64,000 bases of DNA from assembly GCA_039714535.1 (NCBI GenBank), contig JBDLJC010000003.1, positions 42,178-106,177 on the forward strand, in the 5' to 3' direction. The DNA comes from Thermodesulfobacteriota bacterium. GTDB lineage: Bacteria > Desulfobacterota > Desulfobulbia > Desulfobulbales > JAGXFP01. Made by a program: the position numbers and the translations under genes. Shown one piece after another: positions 10,500 through 43,106 of this stretch. The notes beneath the pieces were generated by a model. It saw only the letters and a program-made list of their open reading frames with translations, had not been told where the DNA came from and did not search any database. Position 1 is the stretch's first letter. Each line of letters starts with the position of its first letter.

Positions 10500-10535
10500 C
10501 GACCGATCACCAAAGTGGACTGAATAGATAAATGC

Positions 10536-20027: not shown

Positions 20028-20083
20028 CACAAATCCTCTCAAAAGGAATAAATCTAAAATATTTTTAAAAAACGCGGATCTCG

Positions 20084-21058
20084 TTATTCCGCGTTGGTAT
20101 TTCCGTACTCAGTGGCAAACCGGGCAAAATCCCGCGCATCTATAATATCTTCCGCAACCACGGTCTCCATCTGGGCCGGAATTAAATTGTGATCAGGATT
20201 AAAGTCGCCGTCGTTGGCAGAATTACGATAATGGGATTTAAAAATGCCGAAGTCGGTTGCGTCGACAACACCGTCAAGATTGAAATCGGCAAAAAACCCC
20301 TTAACAGATTCAGAAACACTGCCTGCGTCGCTGTCTGCGGCAAACTTTCGATAATGGAGCAGGGTCGAGAAGGTGCCGCCGCGATAGATCCGAAGCATGG
20401 CTTTTTCGCCGCCCTGCAAATCAAGACTGGCCCCGTCCGTGCCGAATAAATTATTGAGATCCAGTACGCCTTCCGGTGCACTGATCCCCTCGCCGACGAA
20501 AGAACTGAGAGAACCATAGCCACCGTCCGTTTCCAGCAGCACCAGATCTCCTAAACCGGGAACCAGGGAAGCATCACCAGGTCGGATATAAACCTTGAAA
20601 CTCATAAGTTCGTTCGTTAACGGCAACAGTCCACCGCCCGACGCCTGCCGGTAACTTTTAACAATCCCAGCGGTAGTCACTTCCAGAAGAGAGGAGTAGC
20701 CAATACTGGCAGGAGCATCCGGGTCTTTGCTTACGGTACGCGCATAATAGGTTGTTGACGGCGCCAGTCCGGTGGCCCGGATTTTCATAATCCCCTTCTG
20801 TTGCGCAGCTGCCGCAACCTGGGCCGAAGCATCAGCCATTGGCGTCAACAGAACATCTTCACTAATCTGTCGCTGCATTGCCGCATCCAGGTAGATCTCC
20901 ACCTCTGGTACTGCCGCAACATCGGTCATCCAGACCACGGCAAAAGAAGTCGGCGTCACGTCAGTCACCCGAACGCTCACCGTTTCCGGCACGGCCAAAG
21001 CATTGCCCCGAAGGATCACGGCAAACAATAAGCCCAGTGCGGTTATAGATATCTTCAT
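20084..21058 (-). CDS. Secreted protein with an N-terminal FN3-like domain and a C-terminal dockerin-like module
   Basis: The start is set at ATG 21058 (MKISITALGLLFAVILRGNALA signal), which forms an ATGA overlap with the upstream stop. The C-terminus has the Ca-loop/F-hand pattern DFNLDGVVDATDFGIFKSHY, followed by a second degenerate segment AEDIIDARDFARFATEYG. Confidence 0.75.
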   Translation of the reverse strand: MKISITALGLLFAVILRGNALAVPETVSVRVTDVTPTSFAVVWMTDVAAVPEVEIYLDAAMQRQISEDVLLTPMADASAQVAAAAQQKGIMKIRATGLAPSTTYYARTVSKDPDAPASIGYSSLLEVTTAGIVKSYRQASGGGLLPLTNELMSFKVYIRPGDASLVPGLGDLVLLETDGGYGSLSSFVGEGISAPEGVLDLNNLFGTDGASLDLQGGEKAMLRIYRGGTFSTLLHYRKFAADSDAGSVSESVKGFFADFNLDGVVDATDFGIFKSHYRNSANDGDFNPDHNLIPAQMETVVAEDIIDARDFARFATEYGNTNAE

Positions 21059-21882
21059 TCCCGAACTCCTCCAGCTTGACTTCCCGGACAAGTCGGGCAG
21101 CCATCTTTATTGCTAACAGTCACCTTTTCACGGGCATCCGGTGAGGCAAGAAAGCCTCCTTCCATGACGCGAACATCCCCTTGGATATCCCATAGATATT
21201 TTTTATAAAATTTCAGGGCATCTACCTTGGCGGGAAAAACCAGAACCGTCGGCTCCTGGCTGGCAAGGTTTTCGCCCAAAACATTTGACGTGGACTTCCT
21301 CAGACTTCCGGCCAGGCGGGACAGCTTAACCTCAAAGTCAATGCCATTAACCGGAGAGCCGGTTGCCAATGGATATTTTTCCGCTTCCCCGGCGTCCCGC
21401 AAATCATGAACCACCACGGCAATTCCTTTAGCCAAGGCATTACGCAATTCATTAGGCATAATCTTTGCCAATTCAAAATCAGACTTGCCAATCAGGGGAT
21501 ATCCCACACCAAGCCAGGCACGGAGCCCGCCGCTCATCACAAACACCCGTTCATGACCACTGGCAGCCAAAGCTTCGGCAGCCTTTAATGCGTTTTGCTG
21601 CCCGAGACTATTGTCAACCAGCACCAGCATCTTGTTTTTTGAAAACCGTTTCATTGCCAGAATGGAATGGGGGATGTTTACCGCCCCTTCGATATGAATC
21701 GTCTCAAAAGAGGAGGCTGCCCGCACGTCGATCAACCACATCCTGCTGCCCTCCAGGAGCAGATCATGGACCTGCCGGGCCGATATCTGCTCCCATTCCG
21801 CCGCGAAAAGCACGACAGGAACAGACAGGACCATTAACATGATTAAAATTATCTTTTTCATAAGAACCTTATTCTTGTTCAT
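21055..21882 (-). CDS. Secreted tandem rhodanese-homology-domain protein lacking active-site cysteines, with a C-terminal CPTC motif
   Basis: Has a signal peptide and two rhodanese-like halves (WLIDVRAASSFETIHIEGAVNIP...VLVDNSLGQQ and VVHDLRD...VLVFPAKVDA). The catalytic-loop Cys position is D or P. The only cysteines are in the terminal ...DGCPTCPG. Confidence 0.75.
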   Translation of the reverse strand: MNKNKVLMKKIILIMLMVLSVPVVLFAAEWEQISARQVHDLLLEGSRMWLIDVRAASSFETIHIEGAVNIPHSILAMKRFSKNKMLVLVDNSLGQQNALKAAEALAASGHERVFVMSGGLRAWLGVGYPLIGKSDFELAKIMPNELRNALAKGIAVVVHDLRDAGEAEKYPLATGSPVNGIDFEVKLSRLAGSLRKSTSNVLGENLASQEPTVLVFPAKVDALKFYKKYLWDIQGDVRVMEGGFLASPDAREKVTVSNKDGCPTCPGSQAGGVRE

Positions 21883-21892
21883 CCTTCGATTT

Positions 21893-24800
21893 TCAAGGAG
21901 CCCAGCCGCTCACCATGTTTTTCATGGTCACAACCAAACCGTCACCGGGTTTAATCTCAAAGTTTTTACCGATAATCTCAAGTCCTGCCGATGTCTCCCG
22001 AACGGCGGCGCTCTGCCAGAGACCGGTTGTGTTATCGTAACGACGAACGCTGACGATATTCGCCAAACCCACCGAGTTCATCATGTCAGAGGCCTTATAG
22101 CCGTACGGAACGTTGAGCAGGCCAATATGGTTGGCGCCGACCCGGAGATTGTAAGTGGTCGTTTCGCCGCCGGCGGCGACCCGCAATGTCCCGGACGATT
22201 GCGAGTATAGATGCAAGGCCGAGCCGACGCTCAAGTCGAAATCAACCCCGCCCGCGCCACCGGCTTCACTGAACTGCTCCGTCTCCATAGTGGTCCCGTA
22301 TTTGAGGGCTTTTTCTATTGTCAGCCCCTCGGGCGTGGAGGAAATCAGATTGCCGGCTGTCGTGTAATCGCCGACCAGCTGCTGCCCGGTTGCCACAAGG
22401 TTGAAACCAACCTCGATGGGCACCTCAATCGGCAGCGCTACAACTTCAAGTTCGGCCATATAGATCTGGTAACGGCCCTCACGGTTATCCTGCCATACCA
22501 CGAAACCGTCGCCAATGGCCGGTTCTTCCTGTCTGGCGGGATTCGTGGTCAACGTACCACCGCCGCTTCCGACAAGATCAAGGAAGTTCAGGTTCGGATC
22601 ATCCACCCCGGCCGAATAATCGGTATAGACCAGCAGACCACCGTTAATGGCTGGCTGGCTGCGTTCCCCTTCACCATAAGTGAGCCGGATCGCTTCGCCG
22701 CCACCGCCGCGACGGTAGATCTCCTTGTGGCCGTCCCGCTGATCGGCCCAAAGGACATTACCTGAGAAAATGACAGGCTGGCTGGAATTGGCAGGTTCCA
22801 CGGTCAGCCGGGTCTCTTCACCGCTGGTCAGGTCGTATTTATAAATTTCCCCGAGCCCGTGCCGGTAATCTTCCCAGACCACGATATCGCCGGCGGCCAG
22901 GACCGGATGCACTTGGTCACGTTCATGACTGGTAAGCTGAATAACTTCGTTTGTTGCGAGGTTTTTGACGAAAATATCCCAATTGCCAGCGCTGTTATCC
23001 TGCCAGGCAACCCAGTTTTCCGATACGGTGGGATACTGCTGGTCGCCGATCCGGTCGCTCACGGTAAACTCGCCGGTACCACCCAGACGATACCCGTAAA
23101 TGTCCCAACCACCGTGCCGTTTGTCCTGCCAGACGATGAGATCACCATCGATCGCGGGGCGTTCCTGCCCGTATGGATCGGCAACGACTTGGGTCAGTGT
23201 CCCTTCAACAAGATCGTTCAGGTAAATATCCCAACTGCCGTTCCGCTTGTCCTGCCAGACGACCCTGGAACCGGATGCGGCCGGGTAGAGCTGATCGCCC
23301 GATCCACCATTGACCTGAACACCCGCGAACCAGTCGTTTACCGATAAGGTCAACACCTCGGAACCGGCGGTATGCGATGTCGCCTCGGGATCGCTTAAAT
23401 CATCCAGACCGTCCGAGACCAACACCTGTACTGTGTAATCCGCAGCAGGCACAAAGTTGCCGTTATCATCTTTACCGTCCCAAGGGACAATAATCGGGGT
23501 GGCGGTCAGAAAGGTTCCATCCAAGGTTCGAATAACCTTGTTGTTGCCATCCGTAATTTGAAGGGAATAGGATAAGCCCGGCACGGTGTCCGTGGCGTTC
23601 ACGGTAAAGGACACCGTTCTGACCGTCGTTACCCCGGCAGGGGCCTGCGGGCTGAAACCGTCCGCAGAAACGGTAAAATCGGTAATCTGCGGAGCACCAT
23701 CGTCCACCGTAAACTCGGCCGTTTTATGCTCTTCCTCATTTCCGGTCCGATCAACACTGAAGTATTCGAGGGAGTAGTCCCCCGCCTCCAGACTAAAGGG
23801 CAGCGCCGCGACATAATCAACATCCACCCCGGCTACCTTGCGCAGCATAGCCGCAACCCCGCTGCCGCCTTCATTATCCTCACCACTGAGGATGATCCGG
23901 GTCTGCGGGGTTATATATGTTAACTCTCCGCTAATGGCCGGGCCGTCGAAGATCAGGGAGGTGACCGGCGGCATAAAATCGATATCAGGCTGTTTGTAAA
24001 CCAGTTTGTAGCTGTTGGAAGTACCGCCGTTTTCACCGCGATAATCGATGAACTGCAACAGATAAACCGGCTGAAAGTCGCTGTCCAGCTTCTCGTCGAT
24101 CCAGAAGTTATGCGGGTCGAGATGGACGCCGTCGCTTCTAACAACATCCAGCAATTCCAGGAGACCTTGGGAAGGATCATTTATCCGCAAATAAACCCAG
24201 CCGGGAGGATTGGCCGACAGGTCAAGGTCGATATCGACCTCGGGCACTTGGGGCGTCGGCCGCTCAGGAGAGGCGATCAGGTTCACCGGGGTTACCGCTG
24301 CCTCCGCTTCTACTTTGTCGGTCGAACCATTCGGGTATTCGGACTCGTAGATCACATCCGGCATCGGCAAGGCCATCGGGTCGTCGGTGGTGCTCGGATT
24401 ATTTGCGACATCCCGCACCGCCAGATAATCGAGCAGTTCGTCTCGGCCCGGCAGATTGACCTTAACCTGATGGGTCAGATAATGGGCATTGGTTTCCTTA
24501 ATCAAGCTGGTCAGTTCGCCTCCCAATTCGGAGGCATGGCTGAAACTGACATCAAATCCAGAGAACCTGCCGGACAGAGTGGAGATCATCTTCCAATATG
24601 CAGTCGCGCCGTTCTTGCTGGCCAGATTACCCAAGTCAACCGTCAGACTCGAAGCAACTTCACTGTCATTAACCGCGGCGCCGAGCAGCTTGAAGTCGAT
24701 CAGCAACCCCTGCTTGTTTTCAATAATTTTCGGTTGGGCCGAATCTATTTTCAGCTTATTGGCCGGGCCATAACCGTCATTCATGACACGCACGGCCAAA

Positions 24801-25363
24801 GGAAAGGGTACGGGGGGTTCAACCTCGTCAGTAAAAGGGTTGTCGCCGATCACCTGATACGGGGTGAAATAGTCGAGATAGAGCTCCGGCATCGGCCTGA
24901 CATTGATCCGGTCGGGAAAGATATCGACCACCTGTTCAATGCCGGCCACCGTATAGGTCAAGGTAGCGCCAACGAAGTAGTAAACTCCGGTCGGGGACAT
25001 GCCCCCTGATCCGGGCGACGGGATAATCAGCCAGTGGACTTCGGCCCTGGTCCCGGCCTTGACCGTCCCGGTGCCATCGACATCAGAGATATTGCTGGTA
25101 ACCGGCTCCTGGACGAAAAAGATCTCGTCCTTGCGGTTACCGTCACCGTCCTCGATCTCGACATCAACCCGGACGCTCGCAAGATCCTTGGTCAGCAGGT
25201 TGTTGGTCAGGACCAGTTTGGCGTCAAACGCCACCCGCTCAAGGGTCAACTCCTGAACGATTTCCAGCACCACCTTGGCACAGGCGCTGTCTGCAGCCTG
25301 GACACGGGAAACCGGTGCCGACAAAAACAGACTTAATACTATGAAAAGCCACAACCTCTTCAT
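21893..25363 (-). CDS. Secreted 1,156-aa protein. Domain order: ~450-aa N-terminal region of unknown function, Ig-like (FlgD-Ig-like) domains, seven-repeat beta-propeller, C-terminal beta-rich domain(s)
   Basis: ATG start with GAGG upstream. The signal peptide ends in ..SRVQA|AD. There are seven repeats of about 45 aa with the consensus (Y/E)P.(I/V)....(V/I)VWQD.R.G.WDIY. The Ig-like segment includes VPWDGKDDNGNFVPAADYTVQVLVSD. Confidence 0.85.
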   Translation of the reverse strand: MKRLWLFIVLSLFLSAPVSRVQAADSACAKVVLEIVQELTLERVAFDAKLVLTNNLLTKDLASVRVDVEIEDGDGNRKDEIFFVQEPVTSNISDVDGTGTVKAGTRAEVHWLIIPSPGSGGMSPTGVYYFVGATLTYTVAGIEQVVDIFPDRINVRPMPELYLDYFTPYQVIGDNPFTDEVEPPVPFPLAVRVMNDGYGPANKLKIDSAQPKIIENKQGLLIDFKLLGAAVNDSEVASSLTVDLGNLASKNGATAYWKMISTLSGRFSGFDVSFSHASELGGELTSLIKETNAHYLTHQVKVNLPGRDELLDYLAVRDVANNPSTTDDPMALPMPDVIYESEYPNGSTDKVEAEAAVTPVNLIASPERPTPQVPEVDIDLDLSANPPGWVYLRINDPSQGLLELLDVVRSDGVHLDPHNFWIDEKLDSDFQPVYLLQFIDYRGENGGTSNSYKLVYKQPDIDFMPPVTSLIFDGPAISGELTYITPQTRIILSGEDNEGGSGVAAMLRKVAGVDVDYVAALPFSLEAGDYSLEYFSVDRTGNEEEHKTAEFTVDDGAPQITDFTVSADGFSPQAPAGVTTVRTVSFTVNATDTVPGLSYSLQITDGNNKVIRTLDGTFLTATPIIVPWDGKDDNGNFVPAADYTVQVLVSDGLDDLSDPEATSHTAGSEVLTLSVNDWFAGVQVNGGSGDQLYPAASGSRVVWQDKRNGSWDIYLNDLVEGTLTQVVADPYGQERPAIDGDLIVWQDKRHGGWDIYGYRLGGTGEFTVSDRIGDQQYPTVSENWVAWQDNSAGNWDIFVKNLATNEVIQLTSHERDQVHPVLAAGDIVVWEDYRHGLGEIYKYDLTSGEETRLTVEPANSSQPVIFSGNVLWADQRDGHKEIYRRGGGGEAIRLTYGEGERSQPAINGGLLVYTDYSAGVDDPNLNFLDLVGSGGGTLTTNPARQEEPAIGDGFVVWQDNREGRYQIYMAELEVVALPIEVPIEVGFNLVATGQQLVGDYTTAGNLISSTPEGLTIEKALKYGTTMETEQFSEAGGAGGVDFDLSVGSALHLYSQSSGTLRVAAGGETTTYNLRVGANHIGLLNVPYGYKASDMMNSVGLANIVSVRRYDNTTGLWQSAAVRETSAGLEIIGKNFEIKPGDGLVVTMKNMVSGWAP

Positions 25364-25399
25364 TGAACCCTCTCTTTGATGTACCGATTAAGAATGAAA

Positions 25400-25427
25400 A
25401 GTTTAGAATTAAGAATTGCGTTGGCAA
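25400..25427 (-). promoter_or_regulatory. Candidate sigma70-type promoter for the 1,156-aa/rhodanese/dockerin/cohesin operon
   Basis: The minus strand reads TTGCCA-16 nt-TAAACT. It lies about 40-60 nt upstream of the ATG at 25363. This is sequence resemblance only. Confidence 0.3.
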
Positions 25428-25595
25428 ATGCCCTTGTAAAACTCTCTTCACACTTAATTATTCAAGCTCTTCTTTAAGATTACCTCTTGCACAGAAGGTA
25501 GATATTCCCTGTCTGTCATCTCGAACGGCAAAGCCGGAGAGATATTGTCTTTTCCAATCAACAAACTCTTTTAAGATTTATCACATGCGTTCGAG

Positions 25596-25613
25596 GTAAG
25601 CGAAGACTCCGAA
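25596..25613 (+). repeat. Dispersed intergenic motif copy (GGTAAGCGAAGACTCCGA)
   Basis: Lies between the PBP4-like gene stop and the 1,156-aa operon. Confidence 0.5.
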
Positions 25614-25629
25614 TGACAGCAGCACCACC

Positions 25630-26985
25630 TCAATTGACTGCATATGTACCAGTCCTGATCGACTCTAACACCTCGGCCCCGCTCTGATCGCTGTTGGGCA
25701 TAAGACCCACACCCGGTCCGTTCATGATAAAGGTGAAAGCCACTTCCCGCCCCACCGCATCAATCCCATATCCGGCAAGAGCGTAAACGTCCTCCAACCA
25801 ACCGCTTTTGACCCGAAACCGAGGGTCGTCAAAAGGGATGTCCTTGACCGTTCCTTCCCTTCCCGGCCTGGGCAGGGTGTTTTTAAACCTTTCAAACCAC
25901 GGCTTCTTCGAAACTTGGTATAGGTACTTGGTCATGAAGTCGGCCGTTACCCGGTTCCTACCGCTCAGGCCAGAACCATCGGAGATCTCAACCTCGTCCA
26001 TCGGCAGTCCCAGACCTTTCAGGAACTCACCGGTTACCCGAACACCCTTCTCCCTTGTTCCCGGCACACCGAATTTATCAGTGCCCGCCTTAAGGAACAG
26101 GTTATCGGCCAGCACGTTAAGGCTATGGACATTCATCTTGCGCAGCATCTCGTCCTTATCCGGCCCTGGTAATAAATCAGCCAGCAAAACGGCTTCTCCA
26201 GGAGTCTTGCCCTTTCTGATCTTGCCCTTAACGGCAACGCCCTTATCCGCCAATAAGGACTTCAAGACACCGCCTGCATAGAGAGCAGGATCATCCAGGC
26301 TAAAACGTTCGCTGACCATCCCGCCGTTTTCACCTATATTGCCGGTGACCTTATAGGCCAAGTCGTCAAGCCGGGTGATTTTGATCGTATTGGCGGCTCC
26401 CTTAACCGTCCTGGCCGGCACCGCAATCCTGACAGCCTTGTTCGGAGGCTCGATTTCTACAGGGGGAGCCTCTCCCGGCCAGCCCGGTTTTACAGTTACG
26501 GCGACTGTATGGAGATCGAGACCAAGGGCACCGGGCGGGGCATAGGCTGAGCCCCTCCGAGTTCTTTCAAGCCCCTTTATATCGAGCATCGAATCATCCA
26601 CCACAATATCGCCCGTTACTTCCCCGGTCCCTTTGTTAACCAGTTTGTCAACTACCTCTACCAATCCAGCCTTGTCCAAGAGGGCATTCCCGCCACCCTG
26701 CAGATAAAGATTTCCCGAAGCATCGACTGACAGCCGACCATCAAGTCTCATTTTTCCAGCAAGAGCAAAACCGGCTACAAACAACTTATTCAAAGATCCA
26801 GGTCCCATTAGCTTGGCCTGGCCCGAACCATTATTAACATTTAGCGTCCCACCTAAATCCCTGACCGTCAGACTCCACTCCGCCTGTTTGGGAAGCTGCT
26901 TCTCAAATCCTGCTACGCCTGCTGAAGACAAAAATATCATCAACAGACTGGCAACAAATCTCATGGAAAAAGAGTTCAAAACCAC
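25630..26985 (-). CDS. dacB: PBP4-family D-alanyl-D-alanine carboxypeptidase/endopeptidase (peptidase S13-like)
   Basis: All three penicillin-binding motifs occur in the expected order: SLNK (SxxK), DGSGLSGRN and KSG. Signal peptide present. The start is either GTG 26985 or ATG 26964. Confidence 0.7.
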   Translation of the reverse strand: MVLNSFSMRFVASLLMIFLSSAGVAGFEKQLPKQAEWSLTVRDLGGTLNVNNGSGQAKLMGPGSLNKLFVAGFALAGKMRLDGRLSVDASGNLYLQGGGNALLDKAGLVEVVDKLVNKGTGEVTGDIVVDDSMLDIKGLERTRRGSAYAPPGALGLDLHTVAVTVKPGWPGEAPPVEIEPPNKAVRIAVPARTVKGAANTIKITRLDDLAYKVTGNIGENGGMVSERFSLDDPALYAGGVLKSLLADKGVAVKGKIRKGKTPGEAVLLADLLPGPDKDEMLRKMNVHSLNVLADNLFLKAGTDKFGVPGTREKGVRVTGEFLKGLGLPMDEVEISDGSGLSGRNRVTADFMTKYLYQVSKKPWFERFKNTLPRPGREGTVKDIPFDDPRFRVKSGWLEDVYALAGYGIDAVGREVAFTFIMNGPGVGLMPNSDQSGAEVLESIRTGTYAVN

Positions 26986-27107
26986 AACCCGGCCACAACC
27001 TTTTTTATTGCAATAACCTCCAACACATTAAAAACTATTAACATTTTGTTCATAGTAATCTTGCCATGTTGTAGTGTATGCCTGTTATTGTTGGATATCT
27101 TTATTAA

Positions 27108-27695
27108 TTATTCTCCATGCAATACGACTCTGTCTTCATCAAGATAATTAGAAACAGGATAATCAGAATAAATATTTGTTGCTTTCCAGAAATTATCAAT
27201 TTTTCTAAAATTCAGGTTGTTTTTTTTCTCTGTACCATCTTCCTTTTTTACTGAGTATTCTATAATTATCATTTTTTCAGTATCAATCCACCTAAGGAGG
27301 TATATTGTTGATCCAGTATAAATCTCGTTCCACTTATCAATTAAAGCTTGAGAAGATTGTTGAGAACTGATAATGCTTTCGAGCTCTAATTTAGATTCAG
27401 AATCATAACAATCTAAAACCCAACTAATATCCTTATTTTTCATACCAGAAAGAATTGACAAAAGAGTCTTCTCAGGTGAACTAAAATCTACATTTATTTT
27501 TTCTATAAAATCTACGGACAAAGGCTGCTTGTATAGACGTACATCATAATTATATGCCGATTCAATAATCAGAGTTTTATTATCAACTGATTCAATAGGG
27601 TAAGATGGGTTTTCTAGTGCATGAGAAGGACAACACAATATTATAACAACATAAAAACTTAACAAAATAATTCTAAACACATTACACCTCATCAA
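27108..27695 (-). CDS. Small secreted hypothetical protein encoded in strongly AT-rich DNA
   Basis: 195-aa ORF lying 26 nt downstream of the giant gene stop. The N-terminal hydrophobic signal is FRIILLSFYVVIILCCPSHA|LE. No recognisable motif and no clear SD. Its composition matches the 3' end of the giant gene. Confidence 0.55.
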   Translation of the reverse strand: MMRCNVFRIILLSFYVVIILCCPSHALENPSYPIESVDNKTLIIESAYNYDVRLYKQPLSVDFIEKINVDFSSPEKTLLSILSGMKNKDISWVLDCYDSESKLELESIISSQQSSQALIDKWNEIYTGSTIYLLRWIDTEKMIIIEYSVKKEDGTEKKNNLNFRKIDNFWKATNIYSDYPVSNYLDEDRVVLHGE

Positions 27696-27721
27696 TTATT
27701 ATTAATAAATAATTTCCAACA

Positions 27722-30700
27722 TCAATTAAAATATTTTCTAAGATCCCAATCTACTGAATCCCATTTTTCTTTTGGTACGACATAAAAACCTTTATAAGAA
27801 TATTTTTTTAGACCATCAGCTAAAACGGCTTCTCCTTTAAAATAAACTCCTTTAAACCGAGGAACTCCCTTATAAATTCCATCTTCTACCGGACCAACCA
27901 TTTTCAAACCAGAGTTAATGCTTCCACCTATTTTCAAAATTCCACCAGCTATCTTTCCTTCGGCCCCCCCTGATGCTGTAAAATCAAAACCTCCAGTTCC
28001 ATCATACCAATCCGGCAAATCACACAGGTTCGCTTGTATATGCGCCTTAATTTCAACTTCACCCTTACCTTCAACATAGGCAAAAGCTGACACAAATTTT
28101 AATGGAAATTGATAGAAAGGAGCTTTTATTTTACCCACAATTTTACCTGAAATACCGCCTTCAATTACGGGTAAGAGTAGTTCTTTATTTTCACAGCAAC
28201 TTAAAGTTTTGTCATAATCGACTTGAATTGCACCGTCTAAAGACAATTCGGCATTTAAAAATTTAATATATTTTTTTGCAGGATTTAGGATAGGCGGTTC
28301 TACGATTTTAAAGCTTGTTTTGTCTGCCAATTCATCTGGAATAGGTTTCAATTCCCCGCCAACACATTCTCTACAAAAGAACTCATCAATTTTTGTTCCA
28401 TCCGGTTTAGGTATGAGTTGCCCATCCACAAAATCCCAACAAAGATCATCTTCCAAAACCACAACCCTAATAGTGCTTTGCCCATTAGATTTCAGAGGTA
28501 TTGCCACCTTGGATTCATCACAAGATACGCACTCTACATTAACAGAGACTCGATATTCGCCTGGTTCAGGGTATTTGTACGAAAAACCGGAGGTATATCT
28601 ACTTTCTCCATTCCCCAAACGCCACTCGAGAGTTTCCAGATCACATTCACCCTCGAAAGCAAAAATATTTCTAGCAGAGAAATCGAGTGTTTCACCAACC
28701 ACTATAGTTATTTCCTCTTCAAACCATTCCGCATCTTCACCAGAAAGCCGCACTAAACTTTCTATCTCAGCTTCGGGAGGGTGAGGGTCCCATACACAAT
28801 CACCATCCTCACATCTCTCGTTTATAGTACAGGCATCATCATCTCTACAATCCATACACTCACAAGGATCTGTAACAGCAATTGGAGTAGTTTGACCAGG
28901 GGCACCGCCTCCCCCCCCCTGCCAACCACCAGCATAACCACCACCGCCCGAGCCTCCACTAGGTGCAACAGCCGAACCAGCCGGGACACTAGGCGGACAA
29001 AGAGTTGGAATAGCCATCCGGAAATCGACCAGTCTTGAGATAATCCTTTCGAAAGCTGTGTTCGGACAGATGATAACGGAACTACTAAGTTTAATTGTTA
29101 CATAACTGAAACAATTGCCGCCGCCGAAACCGGTAACCTGCTCGAAGAGAGACTTGAATGATGACAGGATAGTCCGGTCTCGCTTGGTCACTCGATACTG
29201 GACGCGGATAGTCTCCATAGGTTCGATCCGATCAGGAATAAATTCCTTCATAACCTCGATATCAAAATCACCATAACTGCTCGGAAAGTCGATCCCGACA
29301 TCGTAGACGGCAATCAAACCATGGTTCTTGACGGTAAATTCACCGTTAAAGACTTCATTCACTCCCATCTCCGGCAGGGTAATACCGGCCGGTTCAGCGA
29401 TCAGCACCGGAGTCGGGACATTGGTCTCGAAGGTCTGGGTAATGGTGACCTCGTACTTATCCTCGATAACCGTCGGCGTTACGCTCCACTCGATTTCGAC
29501 CATATTGACCTCAAGGGCCAGGTGGACGGTGGAGGTAAGGCCGGGCTCGACTACGAATGAACCGGAGAACGGCACACAGCCAGGAGAACTGACATTGTAA
29601 CTATAGCGTCCTTCGGCAATATCATTAAGCATAACCGTGCCGTCACTAGCGGTTCGCAAGGTATAACGCAGATCCAGCAACTGCTGATGCTGCAGGGTAA
29701 TGCTGGCGCCGGAGAGCTTCTCGTAAATCTCATTCTGGACGTCAAAATAGACACTACCCACCGCATCGGAAGAGACGGTGACCTGGACGTTGAAGCGAAA
29801 GGGGACATGATTGTCCGAATAAATGACTAGACTGTCGTCGTAAATGCCTGGAGCGACGGTCTCACCGGGTCGTAACATAATGCCGATATCCTTGCTGCTG
29901 CCGGCATTAATATCACCAAGGAGCTTATCGATGGTCAAATCGAGCCACGGAATGGACGGGCCGTCGATCCGGGCATTTCGCAACACTTCCTGACCACTGT
30001 TACTGATGGTGAAATTAACCATCTTCTGGGTGCCACGCATCATCCCGGTATCGATGTAAGAGGGATAGGTCCGGATCTGCGGGGTCAGGGTGACCATGCC
30101 GACATTGACATTGACCTTGCCGCCCAGGCCCGCATCGGTATCGACGGTGAGGCTGGCGTAACCGGTCTGGGGCGCGTCATCGGCGGCGATGATCTTCAGG
30201 TAGACCCGCTGGTTTTCGCCGCCGCCGATGATCGTATCGCCGCTGTTAATGATCGTCGCGGTCAAGCCCTGCGAGGCCTCGCTGACCATGGTCAGACCGG
30301 TAATAGCAACATTGCCGAGATTGCGGATATTGACAGGGACATTGTAAGAGCGGCCCTGGGCGAGATTGAGATTGAAGACCGAAGGTGAAACTAGCAGGCC
30401 GATAATGTTGAAGGTGGCCTGAACGTCACGGTCGTTAAGCTCGGGATGGGTGGCCCAGACGGAATAGGTGCCCGCCTCGTTGGCCGCCGGGGTAAAGGTG
30501 TGACTGAAGTTACCTTCTGCATCGGTATCGACATTGAAGAACCGGTCGAAGCCTCTGGTAGACACGCCAATCCTAACCGGGACATTGGCTACCGGCAGAC
30601 CATCGATGCTGGAGAGCGCGGTGCCGCTGATCGTCACCGGTTTTCCCATATGATAGACTTCCTTGTCGGTAGTTGCGGCCGCAAAGTAAGGAAGATCGGC

Positions 30701-33700
30701 GATCTCCGACTGGACCGTCCGGCTGAAACCAGGAGCGGTGACCTGATCGGGCCAATCGTAATGGTAATAGGTCTTGGCGACCCTGGCCTCAATCAAGACC
30801 TTGGCCGGAGCGTTGACCGGTACCTGGAAGGTAATCGGCTCGGAGAGGAAACTTCCGCCCGGCTCCAATCTAGCGCTGGCATAGCCGTTGGAGTTGACCA
30901 CGGCGCTGCCGGTCCGCTGGTCAAGAAAACCCTTGGCCAGCAGATTGCCGTCCTGATCGCGGAGATAGACGCTAACCTCATCGGTGAGCCCGCCTCTCTC
31001 GCTGGTCAGCAACTCCAGTTGGGCAGAACCAAGATTGTTGACCTTGATCCTGACCTGAGCCTCGGCGCCACGCACCAGGGGCTCGTTAAACACCTCAAAG
31101 GCCGAACCGGCTGCTGCAACCGGAACAGCCGAGGTCCGGGTCAGGACGACGCTGGTTCCCGGCGCGCTAGCTAGGGTGACGGTGGTCACAACGGCGACGC
31201 TGTCAAGGGCATCAAGGGCCGTGGCCGCAACCTTTTCGATGATTTTCGCTTCACCAGCAACGAGACTGATCGGGCCGGGTTTGATGGTTTCCACGTTGCT
31301 ACCAACCTTAAAGTTCAGTTTACTGATTGTCAGGTCTTCACCGCCGGTCAGGGCCAGGGAGATCTTTTCAATCACCCCACGGCGCAGAACGGTATCGGCA
31401 GGAATGTCGATATCAAGGGCAGGCAATCTTACATCCCGGATCGGGCTCTCATTGCCTTGATCATCAACGACCGACACGCCATAGGTTGCGCCATTGCCGT
31501 CATAGAACCCATCTGAATAAGTGGTAGACGGGGTCGGCGCGCTATTGACCCGATTGCCGTTCCGATAGACATAGTAGCCCTGGATCGAACCAGCATCACT
31601 CTGCCAGGCAAGAACGGGGCCTGCATCTTCATGGCGGGTAAGATTTAGACTGTTTACAGGCGCCACAGGAATGGCCAGTTCGACACTTGTTGACAGAGCA
31701 CTTTCGTTACCCAATGCGTCAACCGAGGTCACACCATAAAAAATCTGGCTGGTCGATGGCGAGGTATCAATTGCTTCCGTGGTAGAAACGACTACTACCG
31801 GCTTGCGGCTGCCAACAGAAGCAAACGAAGAGGCCGCACGATAGAGCCGGTAAGAAGCAGGGATTTCGTCTTGTGGAACATCCCAAACAGCAGTCACACC
31901 GTCACCATCGAGACTTAGGCTTAGACCGGATGGAACAGCCGGACCAGTGCGGTCGGAAACACCTTCAACTTCTGCACACCGGTCCCCTTCGGTTCCGAGC
32001 AGACCTACTGCGGAGACCGAATAGTTCCAGGCACCGTCAGCAGACGGCAGCTCAGAGAAAGTCAGACCGGTAGTGGTGCCGATCTCAACAGCAACACCGG
32101 CAAGACGTCTGTAAACTTTATAGGCCTGGACTCGATCAACCGAACGGCTCCAAGAGAGATCAATTTTACCACCTAATTTTGACGTTGCAGTGAGATCGGT
32201 CGGGGCAGCAGGCGCCGGTGGTGTATCAGTATAGAGATAGAGTTTTTCTCCCGTGGCGACAGTCTCACCGGTGTTGCCGAAGTTGTCGATAGCGTTAACT
32301 AGTTTAAACGTTGCTTCGCCCTCGGCAAGGGGTGAGATGTCTATTTGCGCCGTCCAATGCAGATCGTCGCCGGCCATCACCGGACCATTAAATGCGGCGC
32401 TATTGCCAGTGGCATCGAACAGTGTCATTACCGGGATATCGACCGGCGCTTCGTCGAAGGAGAAATCAACGGTCAGAGATTCCGTGCCAATCTGCTGTAA
32501 AACTGTAGGTGTTGTAATGGTTGCGACCGGACCTCGAACATCAAGGGTCGGGCCTTGGCCCTGACTGTTGCCACGGTTGCCGACAAGATCTTTGCCGGAG
32601 AATTTCCAAACAGTCGGTCCGTGCGGCCCGGCAGGGTCGATCTCCAGGACGGCGCTGTAGTTGAGTTCGTCAACCTTGACGGGAGAAAGCACAATGGGCG
32701 AGCCTATCTGTGGCTCCAAGCTGAGGAATGGCATTTCCTGCAACGGCTCGGAAACGGTCATGCTAACGTTTATCGTCCCGGGACCGGCGACAACGGTAGA
32801 AGCAGGAGTGCCGCCGTTAAACGCGAACATAATCCCGGTTGCGGCCGGCGCGATACCATCCGAGGCAACATTGATCTGCGTGGAGAGACCACTTTCATTG
32901 CCGGCACCGTCAAGGGCTGTTACTGCGTAATAGCTTGCCGTATCGTCAGCCGGAATAATCTCTTTGAATAGATAGGGAATCGGGGTGTTGTTTAGGGGTT
33001 GCATCCCGACAGTTACCGAAGTCGGCAGCGACGCTTGATCGCTATATAAATTATAGCCGGTCGGCAATTCACCCGGCCCTGATTGCCAGTTGAACTGGAT
33101 CGTGCCACCAGGTAATACCTTGGAGACAAGATCCACCGGTGCCGGTGGGGCCCCGGTATCAACCGTGATGATGTGCGGCATGCTGAAGGCGCTGGCGCCA
33201 CCACGGTGGGTGGCCTGCAGGTAGATATTGTTATCTCCTTCGGCTAGAGGAACCGAGGTAAAGGTCCAACTGCCATCGGCCGCCGTATTGGTTTCGCCGG
33301 TAATCTGATCATTGACCTTTAAGGTTACAGTGGTATAGAGATCGGCGGTGCCTCTAATAGTAACCAGATAGTCCGGTGTTATTGCCTCGACTGTGTGGCT
33401 ACCGTATACAGGCACATTCGGCGGGGCCAGACTGACCGTGACTGTTTTGCTTGTTTCCGTGAAGTTGCCGTGTTCGTCATAGGCGACAACTTTGACCGAA
33501 TGGTTGCCGTCACTTGCCGCCACCAGATTCCACAGATAGCTGACGGATGATCCGGTGGTGCTCTGGACCAGGCTGCTGTCGATATACAGCTCAACCCGGG
33601 CCATTGCGCTTTCGTTGTCAGTACCATTTGCCTTGAGAGTAACCGTTCTGGCCAATACCTGATTCTGGGTCAGCGGGATATCACCCTGGGAACTAACAAT

Positions 33701-36700
33701 GAACGGCCCTGCGATCTGCGGGCCGGTCGCATCCTGACGGGGCTCGACACTGATAGTCGATACAACAGGGTTTTCCAGACCAAAGGTGTTGACGACGGTC
33801 ACCCCATACTGATAGGTCGTGCCGTTAGTCAGACCGGGATCGGTATAGGTCGTTTTGTTCGTATCAACGGCCAGCTGCATAGCACCGACATCTGTTTGGA
33901 GATCAGCGGATTGCAGACGGTAGACGCGATAATTTTTGAGATACGGGGAACCGGACGCAGCCCAACTAATGGTGGCCTGATTTTTACCCGGTTCGGCAGC
34001 CAGAGCGGCAGGATTATCGAGGCGGGTGACGGCCTCGGTGACAACCCCGCCACTTTCGGGATTCTCCGCGTCTTTGCCGGTCAGTTTAAACCTGTACAGG
34101 GTGGCGTCAGCCAGGTTGTTCAGCGTATGGGAAATCGCTTCACTGCCGAGGGATATACCCGTATCAGGGTATCCTGGCCCATTATCTACATAAAGGAGCT
34201 GATCGACAAGATCACCGTTGCTACCGGCATCGATACTGGCGGTCCATTGCAGGTTAATACCGTTGCCGTTGGCTGTACTGTAGGTTGGTGTCGCAACAAA
34301 ACCGCTAACTTCCGTCGGCGGCATGGTGTCGACCGGAAAGGCAGTGGCAAAATTAACGGTGGCGGATGAATTGCCGGCCAAATCAACCGGGATTACCACG
34401 AAATAATAAGTAGTACCTTCAGTCAAGCCTTCGATTACGAATGATTTGGTGCCGGAGTTTGTCGTAGCGATTGCCTGCAGTCCGCTGACATCCGTTATCT
34501 CGGAGGTGCTGTAATAAATCCGGTAATAGGCCAGATCGACGGGCTCTTCGTAGTTGTTCCAACCCAAGCGGACCTGATCGCCGCGCCCGGAACCATTGGC
34601 CATCAACACCCCCGGCCCAAGAGCGGCAGGCGGGGCGGCATCATAAATCAAATCAAGAGTCTTGGTGGCAGTATTACCGAGTGCATCGGAGGCTCTAAAG
34701 ACCAGGTGGGTGGCAAGCCCTTCGACTAGGGTGATCTCGTGATTCCAGGAAACACCCAAGTCATCGGCGTTGATAATTGTTTCGCCATTCAGGGTAACGC
34801 TGCACCCCGGTTCCTTGGTTCCTGCCAGGGTCTGCGTTGCGGAGGCGGCCTGATCCTGGTATTCGTCAATGGTAAATACCGGCGGCGTGGTATCGAGCTC
34901 TACTGTAACAGTGGTTTCGGGGAAGGAGTCATTCCCGGCAAGATCACGGGTTGTTACCTTAAGGATGTTTTCACCTTCCTTGAGCGGATAACTGGTACTC
35001 CAGTCGGTTTGATCCGAAACATCGACCTTCTTGACGCCGTTGATCACGATACCTGTTTGAAGTTGCTTGCTACCGCTAAGGACCTGGCTGGAAACGGTAG
35101 TTGGAGAATCAACTGAATCTACCGTTGGTGGGGCCGGGGCTGCTGCATCAAGGACAAAAGTGCCGGTATCCTGAGGAGTCATCTGATTACCAGCCACATC
35201 CCCGGCGTTAGAAACTTCGACAACATAATCACCATCGCCGGTGGTTTCGGTAAAGGCTACAGTACCTCTCCAGGTATTGTGATTTCGCCAGGAACCGTTG
35301 ATCGAGAGAGACTGGCTGCCCCCCGTTCGGTGCAAAACCACAGACGGTTGCAATGAGGTGTTCATTGACTCATTAAACTTAATTGTGAAGGTTACTGTTT
35401 CGACCTTATGCGGGCTGGGCGGACTCATAGTCAGAGACTCAACCTGCGGAGCTGTTTTGTCCACGGTAAAACCGAAAGAAACCGTGCTGGTATTGCCAAC
35501 TTTATCAACGGGGTTAAGAGTGACGGTAACAATCCCTTCTGCCAGCTCCGTTTGGTGGATAAATTCGAGGGCGTCGTTCTCGCTGTTTACGCCCCAGGTT
35601 CCAGTTACTATTGAACCACTGGAATCTTCAACCGTAGCGTTTTCATGGGAGCGGGTGAGGTCAGGGCCTGACCCGTAATTGGGATCGCTGAGGAAAACGG
35701 ATATTTTACCGGTTTGATTTGTTCGGGAATTTATTGCCGGAATTGTGGATGAAACAGTCGGCCCCTGATTGTCCTTGATGATCGTAACTGGTTTGGGCTG
35801 ACAAATATTACCGTGGCTGTCACCAGAGGTTAAATCAAGAGTATTTCTGCCATTATTCAGATCAACCTGAATCTCCCAACTGGTAGCGTTATCAAGCAGA
35901 ATGGTTTCCGTACCGTCAACAATCAGTGATGAATCGGCTTCTTTTGTGCCCCGCAGAACAAATTGGGACTCGCTGGTGTAAAGAAACAGAGCCGGGTCAA
36001 CAGTCGGTTGGGCCGGAGGAGTAAGGTCTCCGGTTAAAACACTAAGTTCTTGAGAATAAGGGCTGTCGTTTGACAGCTTGTCGACGGCTTTTGCTACATA
36101 ATAATATATTGTGTCAGTTGCATGGGCAGCGGTGTCACTAAAAGTAGTTGCACCGGTCTGGCCAAGATATTGGTAACCGGACCCTTTGGTAATGCTGCGA
36201 TATATACGATATATATCAATGTCACATTCCGTATTCGGCTGCCACTTAAGAATGACCTTGTCATGGTCAAGGGTAGCGGTTAGTCCTTCCGGGGCGACCG
36301 GGCTGCCGACCAAGTTGGAAACCGCGCTCTTCTCAATGGAGAACGAACTTCCAAGACCTGTATAACCAATGGCTTTAACCGCGACAAAGTATGTCTGGCA
36401 ACCTGCCAGATTATTAAGTCGAATAGTGCCGGATGTTGTGGTCAGGGGCGGTGAATATTGACCGCTTTCCGTGCCGTGATATACCTGATATTCCTTTATG
36501 TCCGGCGAAAGGTTATTAGACCAACTGACATCTATATAGCCATCGCCGCTAGTTAAATTAATACTGGCGGGCGCTACCGGCGGCGCCAGGGCCACGCTAA
36601 TCGGATAATCGACCGAGGTTGGATTGCCCAATGAATCATAGACCTTGACGGTTAATGTATAACTGCCGTCACCGACTTCGATAATATTCCAGGCCCAGCT

Positions 36701-39700
36701 GTATTCCGGTCCGCTCGAATCGGTTGCCTGCAGGGAGTTATCCAGATAAAACTCAACATGACTGACCCCGGAGAAATCGGCGGCGGCAACCCTAAAACTT
36801 CCCTGTCTAATGAGGGTTGGAGTTGTGGCAATATCGGCGGTGTTATAGGTAAGAGCGCTAATGACCGGGCCATTCACGTCTTTAAGATTGCTGAGAACCG
36901 AGGTTACCTGTTGTCGCTCACCGCCGGCGCTATCAACACTGGTCACCGCCAAATAGTATTTCGTATCCTGACTCAAACCGGTCATCGCACTACTGGTACC
37001 GGTGACAGACTGGACCGGGGTCATTCCCGCCACTGAGGTGAAAGGGGTTTCACTCACATAAACATTGTACTGTTGGAGATGGACCGCCGGTTCAACCGGG
37101 CTCCAGGAGATGCCTATGTTGTCGACATTTACAATAGTCGTAACCCCGGTCGGATTAGCCAGCCGGAACGATATAGCAACCTCTCCCGAGGCCGGGCCGA
37201 AACCGGTCCGATTGAAAGCCTTGGCGCTTAAAAGATTGTCACCGATATTCAGAGAGTAATTAAAACTGAATTGGCCATTATCATCGACTTTGGCGGTGAC
37301 GCCGGTGCTGACCCCATTGTTGAACAATTCGACGTCGGTGAATTTTTCGGCTGTGCCGTTGACCGTGATATCAGGACTGCTGAAAACTGCTCCGGTTACA
37401 GGCAGGGAAATAACGGGAGCATCCGGTAACGCCAAAACGACGCTGAAATTCAGATCGGTGGTTGAAAGATTGCCTACCGTATCGTAGGCCTTGATGGTCA
37501 GGAGATGTTGACCATCACTCAGCGCCACGATGTTCAGAAAACAGTTAAAATCGGGCCCGCTGTCATCCGTACAGACAAGACCACCGTCAACCAGGAATTC
37601 GACCCGATCAACACCGGAAAAATCGGTGGCGCTAACACTTATCGTGGGAGGTATCGTAAATTCATATCCTTCCGTCAAATTATCAATTCCGGCCAGAAGA
37701 TCGGTGACCAGCGGACCATTGACATCTTTTAGATGGCCCACGACCGGCACAACGGTTTTCTTTTCACCATCGGCATAATTAACACTGGTGACCGCTACAT
37801 AATAGTTGGTGTCAATGGCGAGACCGTTAAGGTCAACCGTCGCAACTGTGACGGTCTGGACCGGCGTCATATCAACAACGGAGGTAAAAGGTGTTTCACT
37901 TCGATAGATATTGTAATGATCGAGAATATCGACCGGGCTGACCGGAGCCCAGGAAAGAGTCAGGTGATCTACTTCGGAAACCAGAGTAAGCCCGGTCGGA
38001 TTATCGAGAAGAGTATTAAGGGTAGCGGTGACCTCGTTGCTATGGGGACTGTCTCCGGCATTATTCCTGGCGATTGCCGTAATAGTGTTTTCACGCTCAG
38101 TCAAAGTAACCGGAATAGCAAACGACCCATCCGCTTTGTTCGGAGTCGGATTGCCATAGGGCTGACCGTTCAGCAGGATGACAATATTCATCTCCGGCTC
38201 AGCAGTACCGCTGACCGTAATCGCACCAGCGGTGAAGATATCACCACTGACCGGGTGGGTAATAACCGGTGCCTCAGGAAGAATTACCGCTAGTTCCAGA
38301 GAATATGTGACCGAAGATTTGTTGTCAAAAGAATCAAAGGCTTTAATCGTTAAGGTATATATGCCATTCAGTAGACCAGCCATATCAAACTGATAAGTAT
38401 ATGCACTAGCACCACTGGTGTCGGCCAGAACAACCGAGTCGTTTATGGAGACTTCCACCAGCTTGACATTATAAGGATCGTGGACATTAAAAGTGATCGG
38501 TCCCGAACCGTATATGATCATATTATTGTTTACAGGGTCGCCATCAAAGAGGATACCGGTTATCTCCGGCAATTCTGGCTCGAAATCCTCAAGAAGCCAG
38601 ATTTCTGTGAGTGCCGCTCTGGTAGACAGGAGGGGGTTATCATTTACGAAACTTAGGTTGATATTCCCGGTTGTATAATAATCAGAAGGTATGGAGAACT
38701 CATGTTGCACCGGCATCATAGTTGGCATTACCATGGCAGAATGAACCACTTTGCCTGGTCCAGCATTTATACTCTGCAGACTTCCTTCTTCACCGTCACC
38801 ATTAAAATAGCTGGTCCTGATTTTATATCTCTTCTCAGGATCGAGGTCTGTATAGCCCACTTCGACTGCATTAGAACCCCAGGCTATAGTTCTGTCCGGT
38901 CTGAGGCTAATTGGATCCCAGAGATCATCTCTGACTCCAGCATCCAGAATTGGTTCAGTTATCGAACCAGCTGAAGAGCCAGCTGCAAAACTATAATTAA
39001 CATAGGACATTTCGGTTGCGACTGTGTCCAGATAATCATCAAATGAAACATTATCGGATATTTTTCCTCCGGTACCATCTGGATTACTAGTGAGGTTATA
39101 GGGTCCGCTACCATCGAAATCCCCCCACCAGTTTCGGGTGGCATCAGCGACATTAGCGGTCTGGTTCTTGACAGCCAGCCCTCGGTTCATGAAAATCTGG
39201 TTGTTGGAGATCTCTGCGTTTGCAGTTCCCAGAAGTTCAACACCATCGGAAAGGTTGGTTGATATGTGGCTGAAACTGATGTCCGCATTGGAAGCCCCCT
39301 CCAACCTGATGCCATCACCATTATTTCCCCAGATCCTGCTACCGATTATATTCAGGGTGCCGTTGATACTCCTGATACCATTTGACGAACTCTTCGATAT
39401 TTCGGTGTTTTCAATACGTGCACTAACCACTCCGTTGAAGTAGAGAGCCCCGCTCCCATTTCCACCGGCATAAAGAATCTTGGTGTTATTAAAGATCGAT
39501 CCTTCACCAAATAAAGAAGCATTGAGGGTAATTCCTTTCCAACTACCATTTACCGGATAGGTCGCCATAACATCTTTGTTAGTGTCACCGCCATGATAAT
39601 CATCCTTGATAGTAGTAAAGATGATCTTTTCGTTGAAAGTCGCGTCGGCAATCAGGGCGCCGTCAACATCGACTACCAAGGCCCCACCCTGAAACTTTAC

Positions 39701-41716: not shown

Positions 41717-41750
41717 GTGTAAATTTCTCAGTTTTAAATGGTCTTGGTTT

Positions 41751-42496: not shown

Positions 42497-43014
42497 GTGC
42501 TACTCCCCCCCGAAGAAGCACAGACTTAACACGAACCTACAAGAACTATTTGCTTCAATCAAGCGTTATTTTCAGATCAATCCTACGATAGATAGCCTAG
42601 CATTTCCCGAATTGCCTATCATGCAAGGGATTGCAAGAGATCGACTTGGTCTAATAAAAAAACTAAGCAGTAACCTTTCTCATTTAAAATACAAGAAATA
42701 GATAGGGGTATACCCTACCAACAAGTAAGGACAACCCCCATCAACAAAGATTCTTTAATTTGCCCAAGGGGATATTGATTAACTTCCATCTATTTTGGCC
42801 GAGGATTATCACTGACCCGTACCAAGAAAAGCGAAGAACATCTGAAGAGGTTAATAACTGTCAATACCCAAAGGGCATAAGTTTCGTTTGAACCGACTAT
42901 CGGCTCAACTCAGCTTTATGTTGCAGACAGGAAAAAGGACTGGAAGATCTGGAGTGGGAGTTAAAGAAACACGGGTATAAAATCAAATAGAACAATCTAT
43001 AAGGAAAATTCTTT

Positions 43015-43067: not shown

Positions 43068-43106
43068 CAAACAACACTTTGAATACTTACGTATTTACAA
43101 ACAGAA

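Follow-up and report, generated by a model that had tools for sequence, protein, structure and literature searches.

The 64,000-nucleotide stretch of DNA analyzed here (the window) is part of contig JBDLJC010000003.1 of a Thermodesulfobacteriota assembly (GCA_039714535.1). On its reverse strand it carries a giant gene for a putatively exported protein, whose last codons, together with a small open reading frame (ORF) directly downstream, are AT-rich. The question raised by this locus is whether the AT-rich end of the giant gene (the tip) and the small ORF form a unit that is exchanged separately from the rest of the protein, and, if so, what such a unit might do. The evidence presented below indicates that the interval from ∼29.1 to 27.1 kb is probably an exchangeable C-terminal cassette of a polymorphic-toxin-type giant exoprotein.

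Composition of the Locus

Total G+C, computed in 300-nt windows, is 0.50–0.63 over 29–35 kb and 0.27–0.39 between 27.0 and 28.35 kb, and it is already back to 0.47–0.57 at 26.7 kb. The initial annotation had described, by eye, a drop in G+C running from ∼29 kb through the tip, the spacer, and the small ORF and ending before a downstream PBP4-type peptidase gene, and this course is confirmed both by the G+C windows and by G+C at the third codon position (GC3). Its figure of one-third G+C applies to the last ∼200 codons and to the small ORF (0.30), but not to the whole tip (0.41). Total G+C declines without a step (0.48 at 28.65–28.95 kb, then 0.42, 0.33, and 0.28), since the first part of the tip is rich in Gly, Cys, and Asp, which maintains a high G+C at codon positions 1 and 2. 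At third positions the discontinuity is real once computed: the two-segment changepoint falls at codon 4234 when the whole gene is considered, or at codon 4200 for the last 1500 codons, where GC3 goes from 0.62 to 0.27. As a reference set, 35 further genes of the window have a GC3 of 0.537 ± 0.052 (minimum 0.44), relative to which both the tip (GC3 of 0.26; z = −5.3) and the small ORF (GC3 of 0.22; z = −6.1) are strongly deviant. The long conserved scaffold that precedes the tip has a GC3 of 0.54, which is typical of the window. The composition break had been placed at a Gly-rich linker; it starts 20–55 codons upstream of this linker, within the last conserved domain of the scaffold, but the loss of homology to the closest relative does fall just after the linker, at approximately residue 4280.

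The break is not the product of a chimeric assembly, because an independent Logan contig (L001) covers the end of the scaffold, the tip, the small ORF, and the PBP4-type gene in one piece, and two loci from other samples (L002 and L003) show the same break at the equivalent position. No terminator-like site was found in 26800–29200, and the lack of one between the giant gene and the small ORF fits with their co-transcription. Around the cassette, no boundary repeats or recombination sites were found beyond short AT-rich matches attributable to chance.

Relatives and Diversity of the Tip

With the last conserved domain (TQTFETN...ICPNT) as a probe, relatives were recovered at 3 loci in GTDB species genomes and at 27 in metagenomes; the corresponding hidden Markov model (HMM) matches ∼38 ORFs, distributed over 32 loci. 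L003, the closest relative, is from a Desulfobacterales metagenome-assembled genome (MAG), and its protein is 50–92% identical to that of the window over residues 2250–4250 (76–92% over residues 3500–4250). After approximately residue 4280, identity drops from 0.60–0.80 to 0.13–0.37, which is at chance level, and nucleotide identity drops from 0.74–0.90 to 0.30–0.51. The L003 tip is a different one, a Peptidase_M15_3 domain (24.5 bits, cut-off 23.2), and GC3 falls from 0.61 to 0.30 in this gene. A second relative, L002 (reached via the protein P0002), comprises the end of a homologous giant gene with the drop in G+C at the same place. It has Cys-rich repeats where the window's protein has a PKD-like domain, followed by a terminal domain that is 29% identical to that of the window (here termed the CC domain) and by two full tandem paralogs of the small ORF and one frame-shifted copy.

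Among all relatives, the 28 tails that follow the linker fall into 13 unrelated groups by BLAST. Six loci (L018, L019, L021, L024, L031, and L032) have complete RHS modules (RHS_repeat at 360 bits, RHS, and DUF6531 in Pfam) with different tips at their ends, and one tip is a DUF6973 domain (60 bits). Four tails in three loci (L006, L007, and L010) share a Cys-rich domain with the motif C-x-x-H-D-x-C-Y, and each of these is followed by a related multi-transmembrane protein of ∼100 aa, such that tip types other than CC have partners of their own. The tails of L005, L020, and L026 consist of Ig/PKD domains and a helical end, and several other tails are unique. The commonest tip is the CC domain. 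The idea of a swappable cassette, put forward in the initial annotation, thus stands up to the alignment of homologs: conservation stops just after the Gly-rich linker, the L003 tip differs, at least 13 unrelated tail groups with different small downstream genes occupy the slot in ∼30 loci, and the small ORF co-varies with the tip.

The tips with the C-x-x-H-D-x-C-Y motif (L006; L007, 8106–10541; L010, 1–7467 and 7808–9061) end C-terminally in CNCC. This combination resembles that of secreted phospholipase A2, but the tips have no Pfam match, and this identity is not claimed.

Orphan Arrays, Flanks, and Signs of Exchange

In several relatives, additional copies of the tip module occur as orphans. 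The full gene in L010 is followed by two shortened copies that start at positions 70–75 of the conserved-domain profile; the first has its own complete tip, and the second stops shortly after the junction motif that follows the linker. Three copies with three different tips are present in L017, two or three copies in L007, and a small-ORF fragment followed by a further module in L008. The arrays span 7808–9928 (L010), 1544–6879 (L017), and 5062–10541 (L007), and most fragments are accompanied by a small downstream gene of their own. An IS200/RayT-like, transposase-type ORF lies just past the array in L010 (9993–10664), and a similar ORF is found in L005 (8827–9789).

The variable slot lies between the scaffold on one side and, on the other, the conserved PBP4-type gene and a gene for a 1,156-aa beta-propeller protein. 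These flanks hold for CC tips (the window, L004, L009, and L012), RHS tips (L018 and L024), an Ig/PKD tip (L026), and a unique tip (L013). Between the cassette and the PBP4-type gene, three loci also encode a DsbA-like thiol-disulfide oxidoreductase (L004, 13005–13835; L009, 8229–9068; L012, 4574–5518); these three have Cys-rich tips, and the gene is absent from that position in the window.

Wherever the scaffold has a GC3 of 0.57 or more, the tip is AT-rich, with a difference of −0.21 to −0.51. In the RHS-type relatives, the RHS repeats keep the composition of the scaffold and only the last 150 codons drop, from 0.66–0.70 to 0.25–0.35 GC3. The same pattern is reported for rhs genes, which have a core with 67.7% G+C and a tip with 46.4%, and whose dissociated tips retain fragments of the core (PMC2935791). 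Given that the last conserved domain is common to all relatives and is kept as a 5′ fragment on the orphan modules, this domain is likely the homology arm for cassette exchange. The position of the GC3 shift inside the conserved domain would be expected if incoming cassettes bring part of that domain with them, like the orphans.

The CC Domain and Its Candidate Downstream Partner

In the tip of the window's protein, a Cys-rich unit comes after the junction motif, and many relatives also have Cys-rich repeats after the junction. The PKD-like domain that follows had been named in the initial annotation; similarity to Ig/PKD domains is present at this position, but both Pfam scores are below threshold (PF00801, E = 6.6e-4, 20.1 bits, cut-off 23.5; PF18911, E = 2.1e-4, 21.7 bits, cut-off 27). 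A second Cys-rich unit, which resembles the CxxC-G repeats of L002 and L003, precedes the terminal CC domain. An exhaustive phmmer search with the last 228 residues against 1.84 billion representative proteins returned only the protein itself, the relative P0004, and P0005, whose similarity is confined to the second Cys-rich unit, outside the CC domain. Six distinct loci have the CC domain: the window (and L001), L002, L004 (identical to L015, Geobacter sp. UBA9976), L027, L009, and L012, where the distant members in the last four were identified by hhalign (probability 90%), HMM, and alignment. Only a Cys-Cys pair, a further Cys, and a single Gly are invariant across the six members, and the pair gives the domain its name.

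The small ORF has three in-frame candidate starts between 27678 and 27695 (TTG at 27695, ATG at 27692, and GTG at 27680), and the sequence GAGG (27687–27690) lies six bases ahead of the GTG. In an NCBI Thermodesulfobacteriota MAG, the small protein is annotated as a 190-aa product (P0001), and for this reason, with the support of the GAGG, the true start is likely the GTG and probably not the TTG. The 195-aa ORF reported earlier is thus present at its position, but its product is likely 190 aa. An N-terminal signal peptide with a probable cleavage site at SHA|LE is evident from the sequence. In a collection of 5.8 billion sequences, the small protein has only two relatives.

Members of the small-ORF family directly follow the tip in all six CC loci, with signal peptides and in one to three copies each (three in L002 and two in L027; the family is also present in the window, L004, L009, and L012). 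Profile searches of all ORFs of all loci placed the family beside no identified non-CC tip, and apart from these it has a single member, a fragment at the beginning of contig L008 (131–403) whose upstream tip is off the contig. The window's protein matches that of L004 at E = 7e-9, and the L027 pair is recognized at E = 7e-17 and 4.5e-8. The subgroup of L009 and L012 is linked by hhalign (probability 81%, E = 1.2e-5 over 157 columns) and by reciprocal HMM cross-matches. Judged by these sequence comparisons, the co-variation of the small ORF with the type of tip fits a cognate partner. In L002, the small ORF adjacent to the tip (2924–3499) shares 28–29% identity with the window's protein, in line with the 29% identity of the tips, and the next copy (3548–4123) shares 57%, which would look like a cognate partner followed by an extra partner of the orphan type.

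A fused partner resembling the small ORF was also considered at the C-terminal end of the L005, L020, and L026 tips, and was dropped (hhalign probability 1.7%).

The terminal domain had been described as a ∼210-aa beta-rich domain with no recognizable motif, which is borne out by its length of ∼205 aa, by the lack of Pfam, NCBIfam, or PDB-sequence matches, and by a low-confidence structural model that is all-strand. By comparison with the same three libraries, both the CC domain and the small protein appear to be undescribed families.

Scaffold and Junction

The conserved scaffold consists of parallel beta-helix repeats and long arrays of Ig-like and FN3 domains (Pfam families Beta_helix, Big_7, Big_13, fn3, NosD, and others; NCBIfam para_beta_helix and Ca_tandemer), and a Sec-type signal peptide can be read from the translation at its N-terminus. 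Most relatives have a Gly-rich stretch at the position of the linker, and a loose pattern for the junction motif matches 20 of 31 tails, with further cases visible by eye; similarity among relatives ends right after this motif. The features of the locus are listed in Table 1.

Table 1. Features of the giant gene, its tip, and the downstream region, with positions in the window.
Feature	Position	Strand	Residues or codons	Basis or remark
Giant gene	27722–41716	−	4664 aa	ORF call
Conserved scaffold, putative delivery/presentation	29117–41716	−	aa 1–4200	Pfam, NCBIfam, GC3, identity to L003
Last conserved domain before linker, motifs TQTFETNVPTPVL ... ICPNT	28990–29500	−	aa 4073–4242	Alignment and HMM
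GC3 changepoint interval	29014–29116	−	codons 4200–4234	Two-segment likelihood
Gly-rich linker, GGSGGGGYAGGWQGGGGGAPG	28895–28957	−	aa 4254–4274	Translation
Junction motif, QTTPIAVTDPCEC	28856–28894	−	aa 4275–4287	Family consensus ∼T-T-P-L-x-T-x-N-P-C-x-C
Cys-rich unit, CRDDDACTINERCEDGDCV	28793–28849	−	aa 4290–4308	Read from translation
PKD-like Ig domain	28532–28708	−	aa 4337–4395	PF00801, PF18911; below Pfam threshold
Second Cys-rich unit, CWDF...CRECVGGELKPIP	28337–28441	−	aa 4426–4460	Pairwise alignment with L002
Terminal all-beta CC domain, ∼205 aa, candidate effector	27725–28336	−	aa 4461–4664	phmmer, HMM, hhalign
Spacer, AT-rich, 26 nt	27696–27721	−		Between giant-gene stop codon and small ORF; sequence
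Small ORF	27108–27695	−		Candidate cognate immunity or partner protein
Intergenic region, 3′ boundary of cassette	26986–27107	−		G+C regains genome level; sequence, G+C windows
PBP4-type D-Ala-D-Ala carboxypeptidase/endopeptidase gene, conserved downstream flank	25630–26985	−		Pfam Peptidase_S13, 188 bits; TIGR00666, 146 bits

Within the scaffold gene there is also a milder gradient (38000–41716), in which the first ∼1,000 codons have a GC3 of 0.45, compared with 0.61 for codons 3000–4200. In the N-terminal beta-helix region, an exact direct duplication of 707 nt (39922–40628 and 40807–41513, 885 nt from start to start) yields two identical blocks of ∼236 aa, and reflects either a very recent tandem duplication or a collapse/expansion in the assembly.

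Comparison With Known Systems

As far as it can be read from sequence, the locus has the architecture by which polymorphic toxin systems are defined (PMC3482391). The scaffold is conserved and its end variable (76–92% identity to L003 up to residue 4250, and none thereafter), and the small downstream gene co-varies with the tip (at six CC-tip loci and with no other type of tip). Orphan tip cassettes are present in the related loci L010, L007, L017, and L008, and none was found within the 64-kb window.

In outline, the locus resembles those of Rhs proteins, which likewise have a GC-rich or host-like core and an AT-rich, non-homologous tip after a short conserved junction, a small cognate gene directly downstream, and arrays in which dissociated tips retain part of the core, as seen here in L010, L007, and L017 (Jackson et al., 2009; PMC2935791). 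In some relatives of the window's scaffold, the slot is occupied by a complete RHS module. The window's protein itself is not Rhs, because it lacks RHS repeats: no RHS/YD repeats are found by Pfam, nor is the PxxxxDPxGL core end present, and the junction is instead a Gly-rich linker and TTPLxTxNPCxC at the end of a beta-helix/Ig/FN3 fiber of ∼4,250 aa. A PAAR, VgrG, or type VI secretion system (T6SS) context is also lacking here.

CdiA/CdiI systems (type Vb) share with this locus a very large beta-helical exoprotein, a variable C-terminus demarcated by a motif, a gene immediately downstream, and orphan C-terminal/immunity modules with 5′ homology. The window's protein is not a CdiA, because the two-partner secretion (TPS) domain, FHA repeats, VENN motif, and CdiB/TpsB partner are all missing by Pfam, NCBIfam, and inspection of the translation. 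Furthermore, most CdiI proteins are cytoplasmic, unlike the candidate immunity protein here, which is predicted to be exported.

In the Sec-dependent toxins of the type II secretion system (T2SS) class, which include MafB-like proteins (Zhang et al., 2012; PMC3482391), the signal peptide is likewise the sole recognizable export signal, and these toxins also have a variable C-terminal toxin domain, a downstream immunity gene, and cassette recombination. Their immunity families include some with an NTF2 fold (Imm-NTF2; PMC3482391). A Foldseek search with the low-confidence model of the small protein gave no match at E ≤ 1e-3, and its weak top matches are mostly NTF2-like, a hint that the small protein could possibly have such a fold. 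The scaffold here differs in being unrelated to those of the Sec-dependent toxins and orders of magnitude larger, and the tip and its partner match no described Tox, Ntox, or Imm family available through Pfam.

Thousands of residues of tandem Ig-like/FN3 and beta-helix domains are also characteristic of giant Ig-repeat adhesins (Bap/RTX-adhesin-like, Ca_tandemer). Here, however, there is no C-terminal signal for the type I secretion system (T1SS) and there are no ABC, MFP, or TolC genes nearby, and a polymorphic C-terminus with cognate small genes is not a feature of those adhesins. We found no description of this scaffold in the open-access literature, which is weak evidence of absence; within the libraries and open-access literature searched, the carrier, the junction motif, the CC domain, and the small protein appear undescribed.

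Proposed Mechanism and Alternative Explanations

The carrier, a putatively Sec-exported chain of ∼4,250 residues (beta-helix, Ig/FN3 array, last conserved domain, linker, and junction), is inherited vertically and has the composition of its host, and we propose that the modules behind the junction are drawn from a shared AT-rich pool. The module of the window comprises the Cys-rich units, the PKD-like spacer, a ∼205-aa CC domain that is presumably disulfide-stabilized, and, probably on the same transcript, the gene for the small exported protein. Modules may be swapped by homologous recombination through the last conserved domain, as in the displacement of Rhs C-termini. The CC domain would then be the effector, and the small protein, in the periplasm, would bind and neutralize it in the producer and its kin.

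The CC domain may act non-enzymatically and outside the cytoplasm, by inserting into the membrane or forming a pore, or by blocking a periplasmic, surface, or other envelope target. We hold this with low confidence; it is favored because the only invariant residues are Cys and Gly, disulfide-rich repeats precede the domain, a DsbA-like gene lies near in three loci, and the partner is exported. The PBP4-like peptidase and the beta-propeller protein could, speculatively, help the fiber through the cell wall. A yet more specific reading, which we offer tentatively as a possibility, is that anaerobic sediment bacteria (Desulfobacterales-like Thermodesulfobacteriota, Geobacter, and Nitrospirota) have a means of antagonism not described before, with a fiber of ∼4,000–4,600 residues, exchangeable toxins displayed behind the linker and junction motif, a new CC toxin that would be non-enzymatic and disulfide-locked and would be directed at the envelope or form pores, and a new family of periplasmic immunity proteins. 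The fiber would be encoded together with a dedicated PBP4-type peptidase and a TolB-like beta-propeller protein, and no known type V, VI, or VII secretion machine (T5SS, T6SS, or T7SS) would be used.

Several observations weigh against an antagonistic function of the cassette. Toxicity and immunity of the window's pair are inferred from the architecture and from the other occupants of the slot. Neither the CC domain nor the small ORF matches a known toxin or immunity family in Pfam, NCBIfam, or the PDB sequences, and profile searches of PDB sequences with both alignments gave nothing below E = 0.25. The AlphaFold2 models are unusable, with a predicted local distance difference test (pLDDT) score of 35.7 for the CC domain (single sequence) and 38.4 for the small protein (three-sequence alignment). 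The tails of L005, L020, and L026 (Ig/PKD domains and a helical end) and L016 (a Gly/Cys-rich end) are not recognizable toxins. Between the window and L002, the small ORF is better conserved (57%) than the tip (29%). An HMM search of the 64-kb window found no orphan modules, and components of T1SS, TpsB/T5SS, T6SS, or T7SS were not recognized in it by Pfam or NCBIfam. Lastly, the CC tip is the commonest, occurring even in the distant Geobacter, and so could be an ancestral, non-toxic functional end.

These points lead to the alternative that fares best, namely that the cassette is exchangeable without being antagonistic: the CC domain would be a tip that determines the specificity of binding or adhesion, the small protein would be a partner in folding, export, or assembly, and the diversity of tips would result from diversifying selection on surface recognition, as in pilin or tail-fiber variation. 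This would agree with the lack of a catalytic signature among the CC invariants and of similarity to toxin families, with the occurrence of the CC tip, within a full syntenic locus, from Desulfobacterales-like genomes to Geobacter, with the adhesin-like scaffold (Ig/FN3 domains and the Ca_tandemer match), with the DsbA-like gene beside the slot in L004, L009, and L012, and with those other tips that are Ig/PKD-type rather than enzyme-like. We nonetheless consider it unlikely, given that RHS toxin modules, an M15 peptidase, and DUF6973 are found at this site in relatives, and that the different tip types have their own small downstream genes. The tandem, divergent small ORFs of L002 (three) and L027 (two) are more like immunity arrays than a chaperone, and divergence in parallel with the neighboring tip (28–29% vs. 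29%) is not what one expects of a chaperone.

Much less probable is that the C-terminal domain anchors or translocates the protein as an autotransporter-like outer-membrane beta-barrel with the small ORF as accessory factor, a possibility raised in the initial annotation as an anchoring domain. The domain is predicted to be all-beta and has Gly-rich amphipathic stretches, and a Sec signal peptide with beta-helix repeats is also found in autotransporter passengers. A typical outer-membrane beta-signal ends in an aromatic residue, but the six CC members end in YFN, TGE, AVD, VCQ, CFN, and VCP, of which none is aromatic. Moreover, most relatives lack the domain, and relatives without it retain an equivalent scaffold and flanking genes. 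A membrane barrel would not typically have conserved cysteines or be preceded by disulfide-rich repeats, no Pfam barrel family matches consistently, and the tip matches no known anchor. Least credible of all is an incidental break with nothing exchanged, arising from amino-acid content, local mutational bias, or a chimeric assembly, for which the gradual fall in total G+C and the AT-richer N-terminal quarter of the giant gene (GC3 0.45) might speak, but the break is sharp at synonymous positions (5–6 standard deviations from other genes), is found again at this junction in separate assemblies and in relatives whose tips are unrelated, and coincides with the loss of homology.

Genomic Neighborhood

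Downstream of the cassette, the genes on the reverse strand at 14706–26985 encode the S13 peptidase, the 1,156-aa TolB-like beta-propeller/FlgD-Ig protein, a rhodanese-domain protein, a 335-aa FN3-like protein, and a 1,778-aa Big_13/Big_3_3 protein. The gene order from PBP4 to the FN3-like protein is retained in Geobacter sp. UBA9976 (L004), and the sharing of this gene set points to a single large cluster of cell-surface genes. The ∼1.4 kb of AT-rich DNA upstream of the giant gene (41717–43106; G+C 0.37–0.43) contains short ORFs only and has no Rfam match, and beyond it lies a 92-aa HU/IHF-like gene (43107–43385). The only Rfam match in the window is a tRNA (14181–14254), which is unrelated to the cassette.

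Implications

Most of the polymorphic toxins known come from Proteobacteria, Firmicutes, and Bacteroidota, and their carriers are mainly of the Rhs, CdiA, MafB, LXG, or T6SS-linked kind. The locus described here would extend the same evolutionary logic (a carrier, a junction, AT-rich tips with their partners, and orphan arrays) to an unrelated giant scaffold in uncultured anaerobes. For the analysis of MAGs, a simple GC3 changepoint within a giant gene can locate the boundaries of such cassettes. If the proposed function is correct, these organisms would possess a new class of carrier, with a junction motif that could be used for toxin mining, and one or more new effector/immunity pairs active outside the cytoplasm. 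The PBP4-like peptidase, the beta-propeller protein, and the DsbA-like protein may, in that case, point to an unknown route through the envelope for a protein of ∼500 kDa (as estimated from its length).

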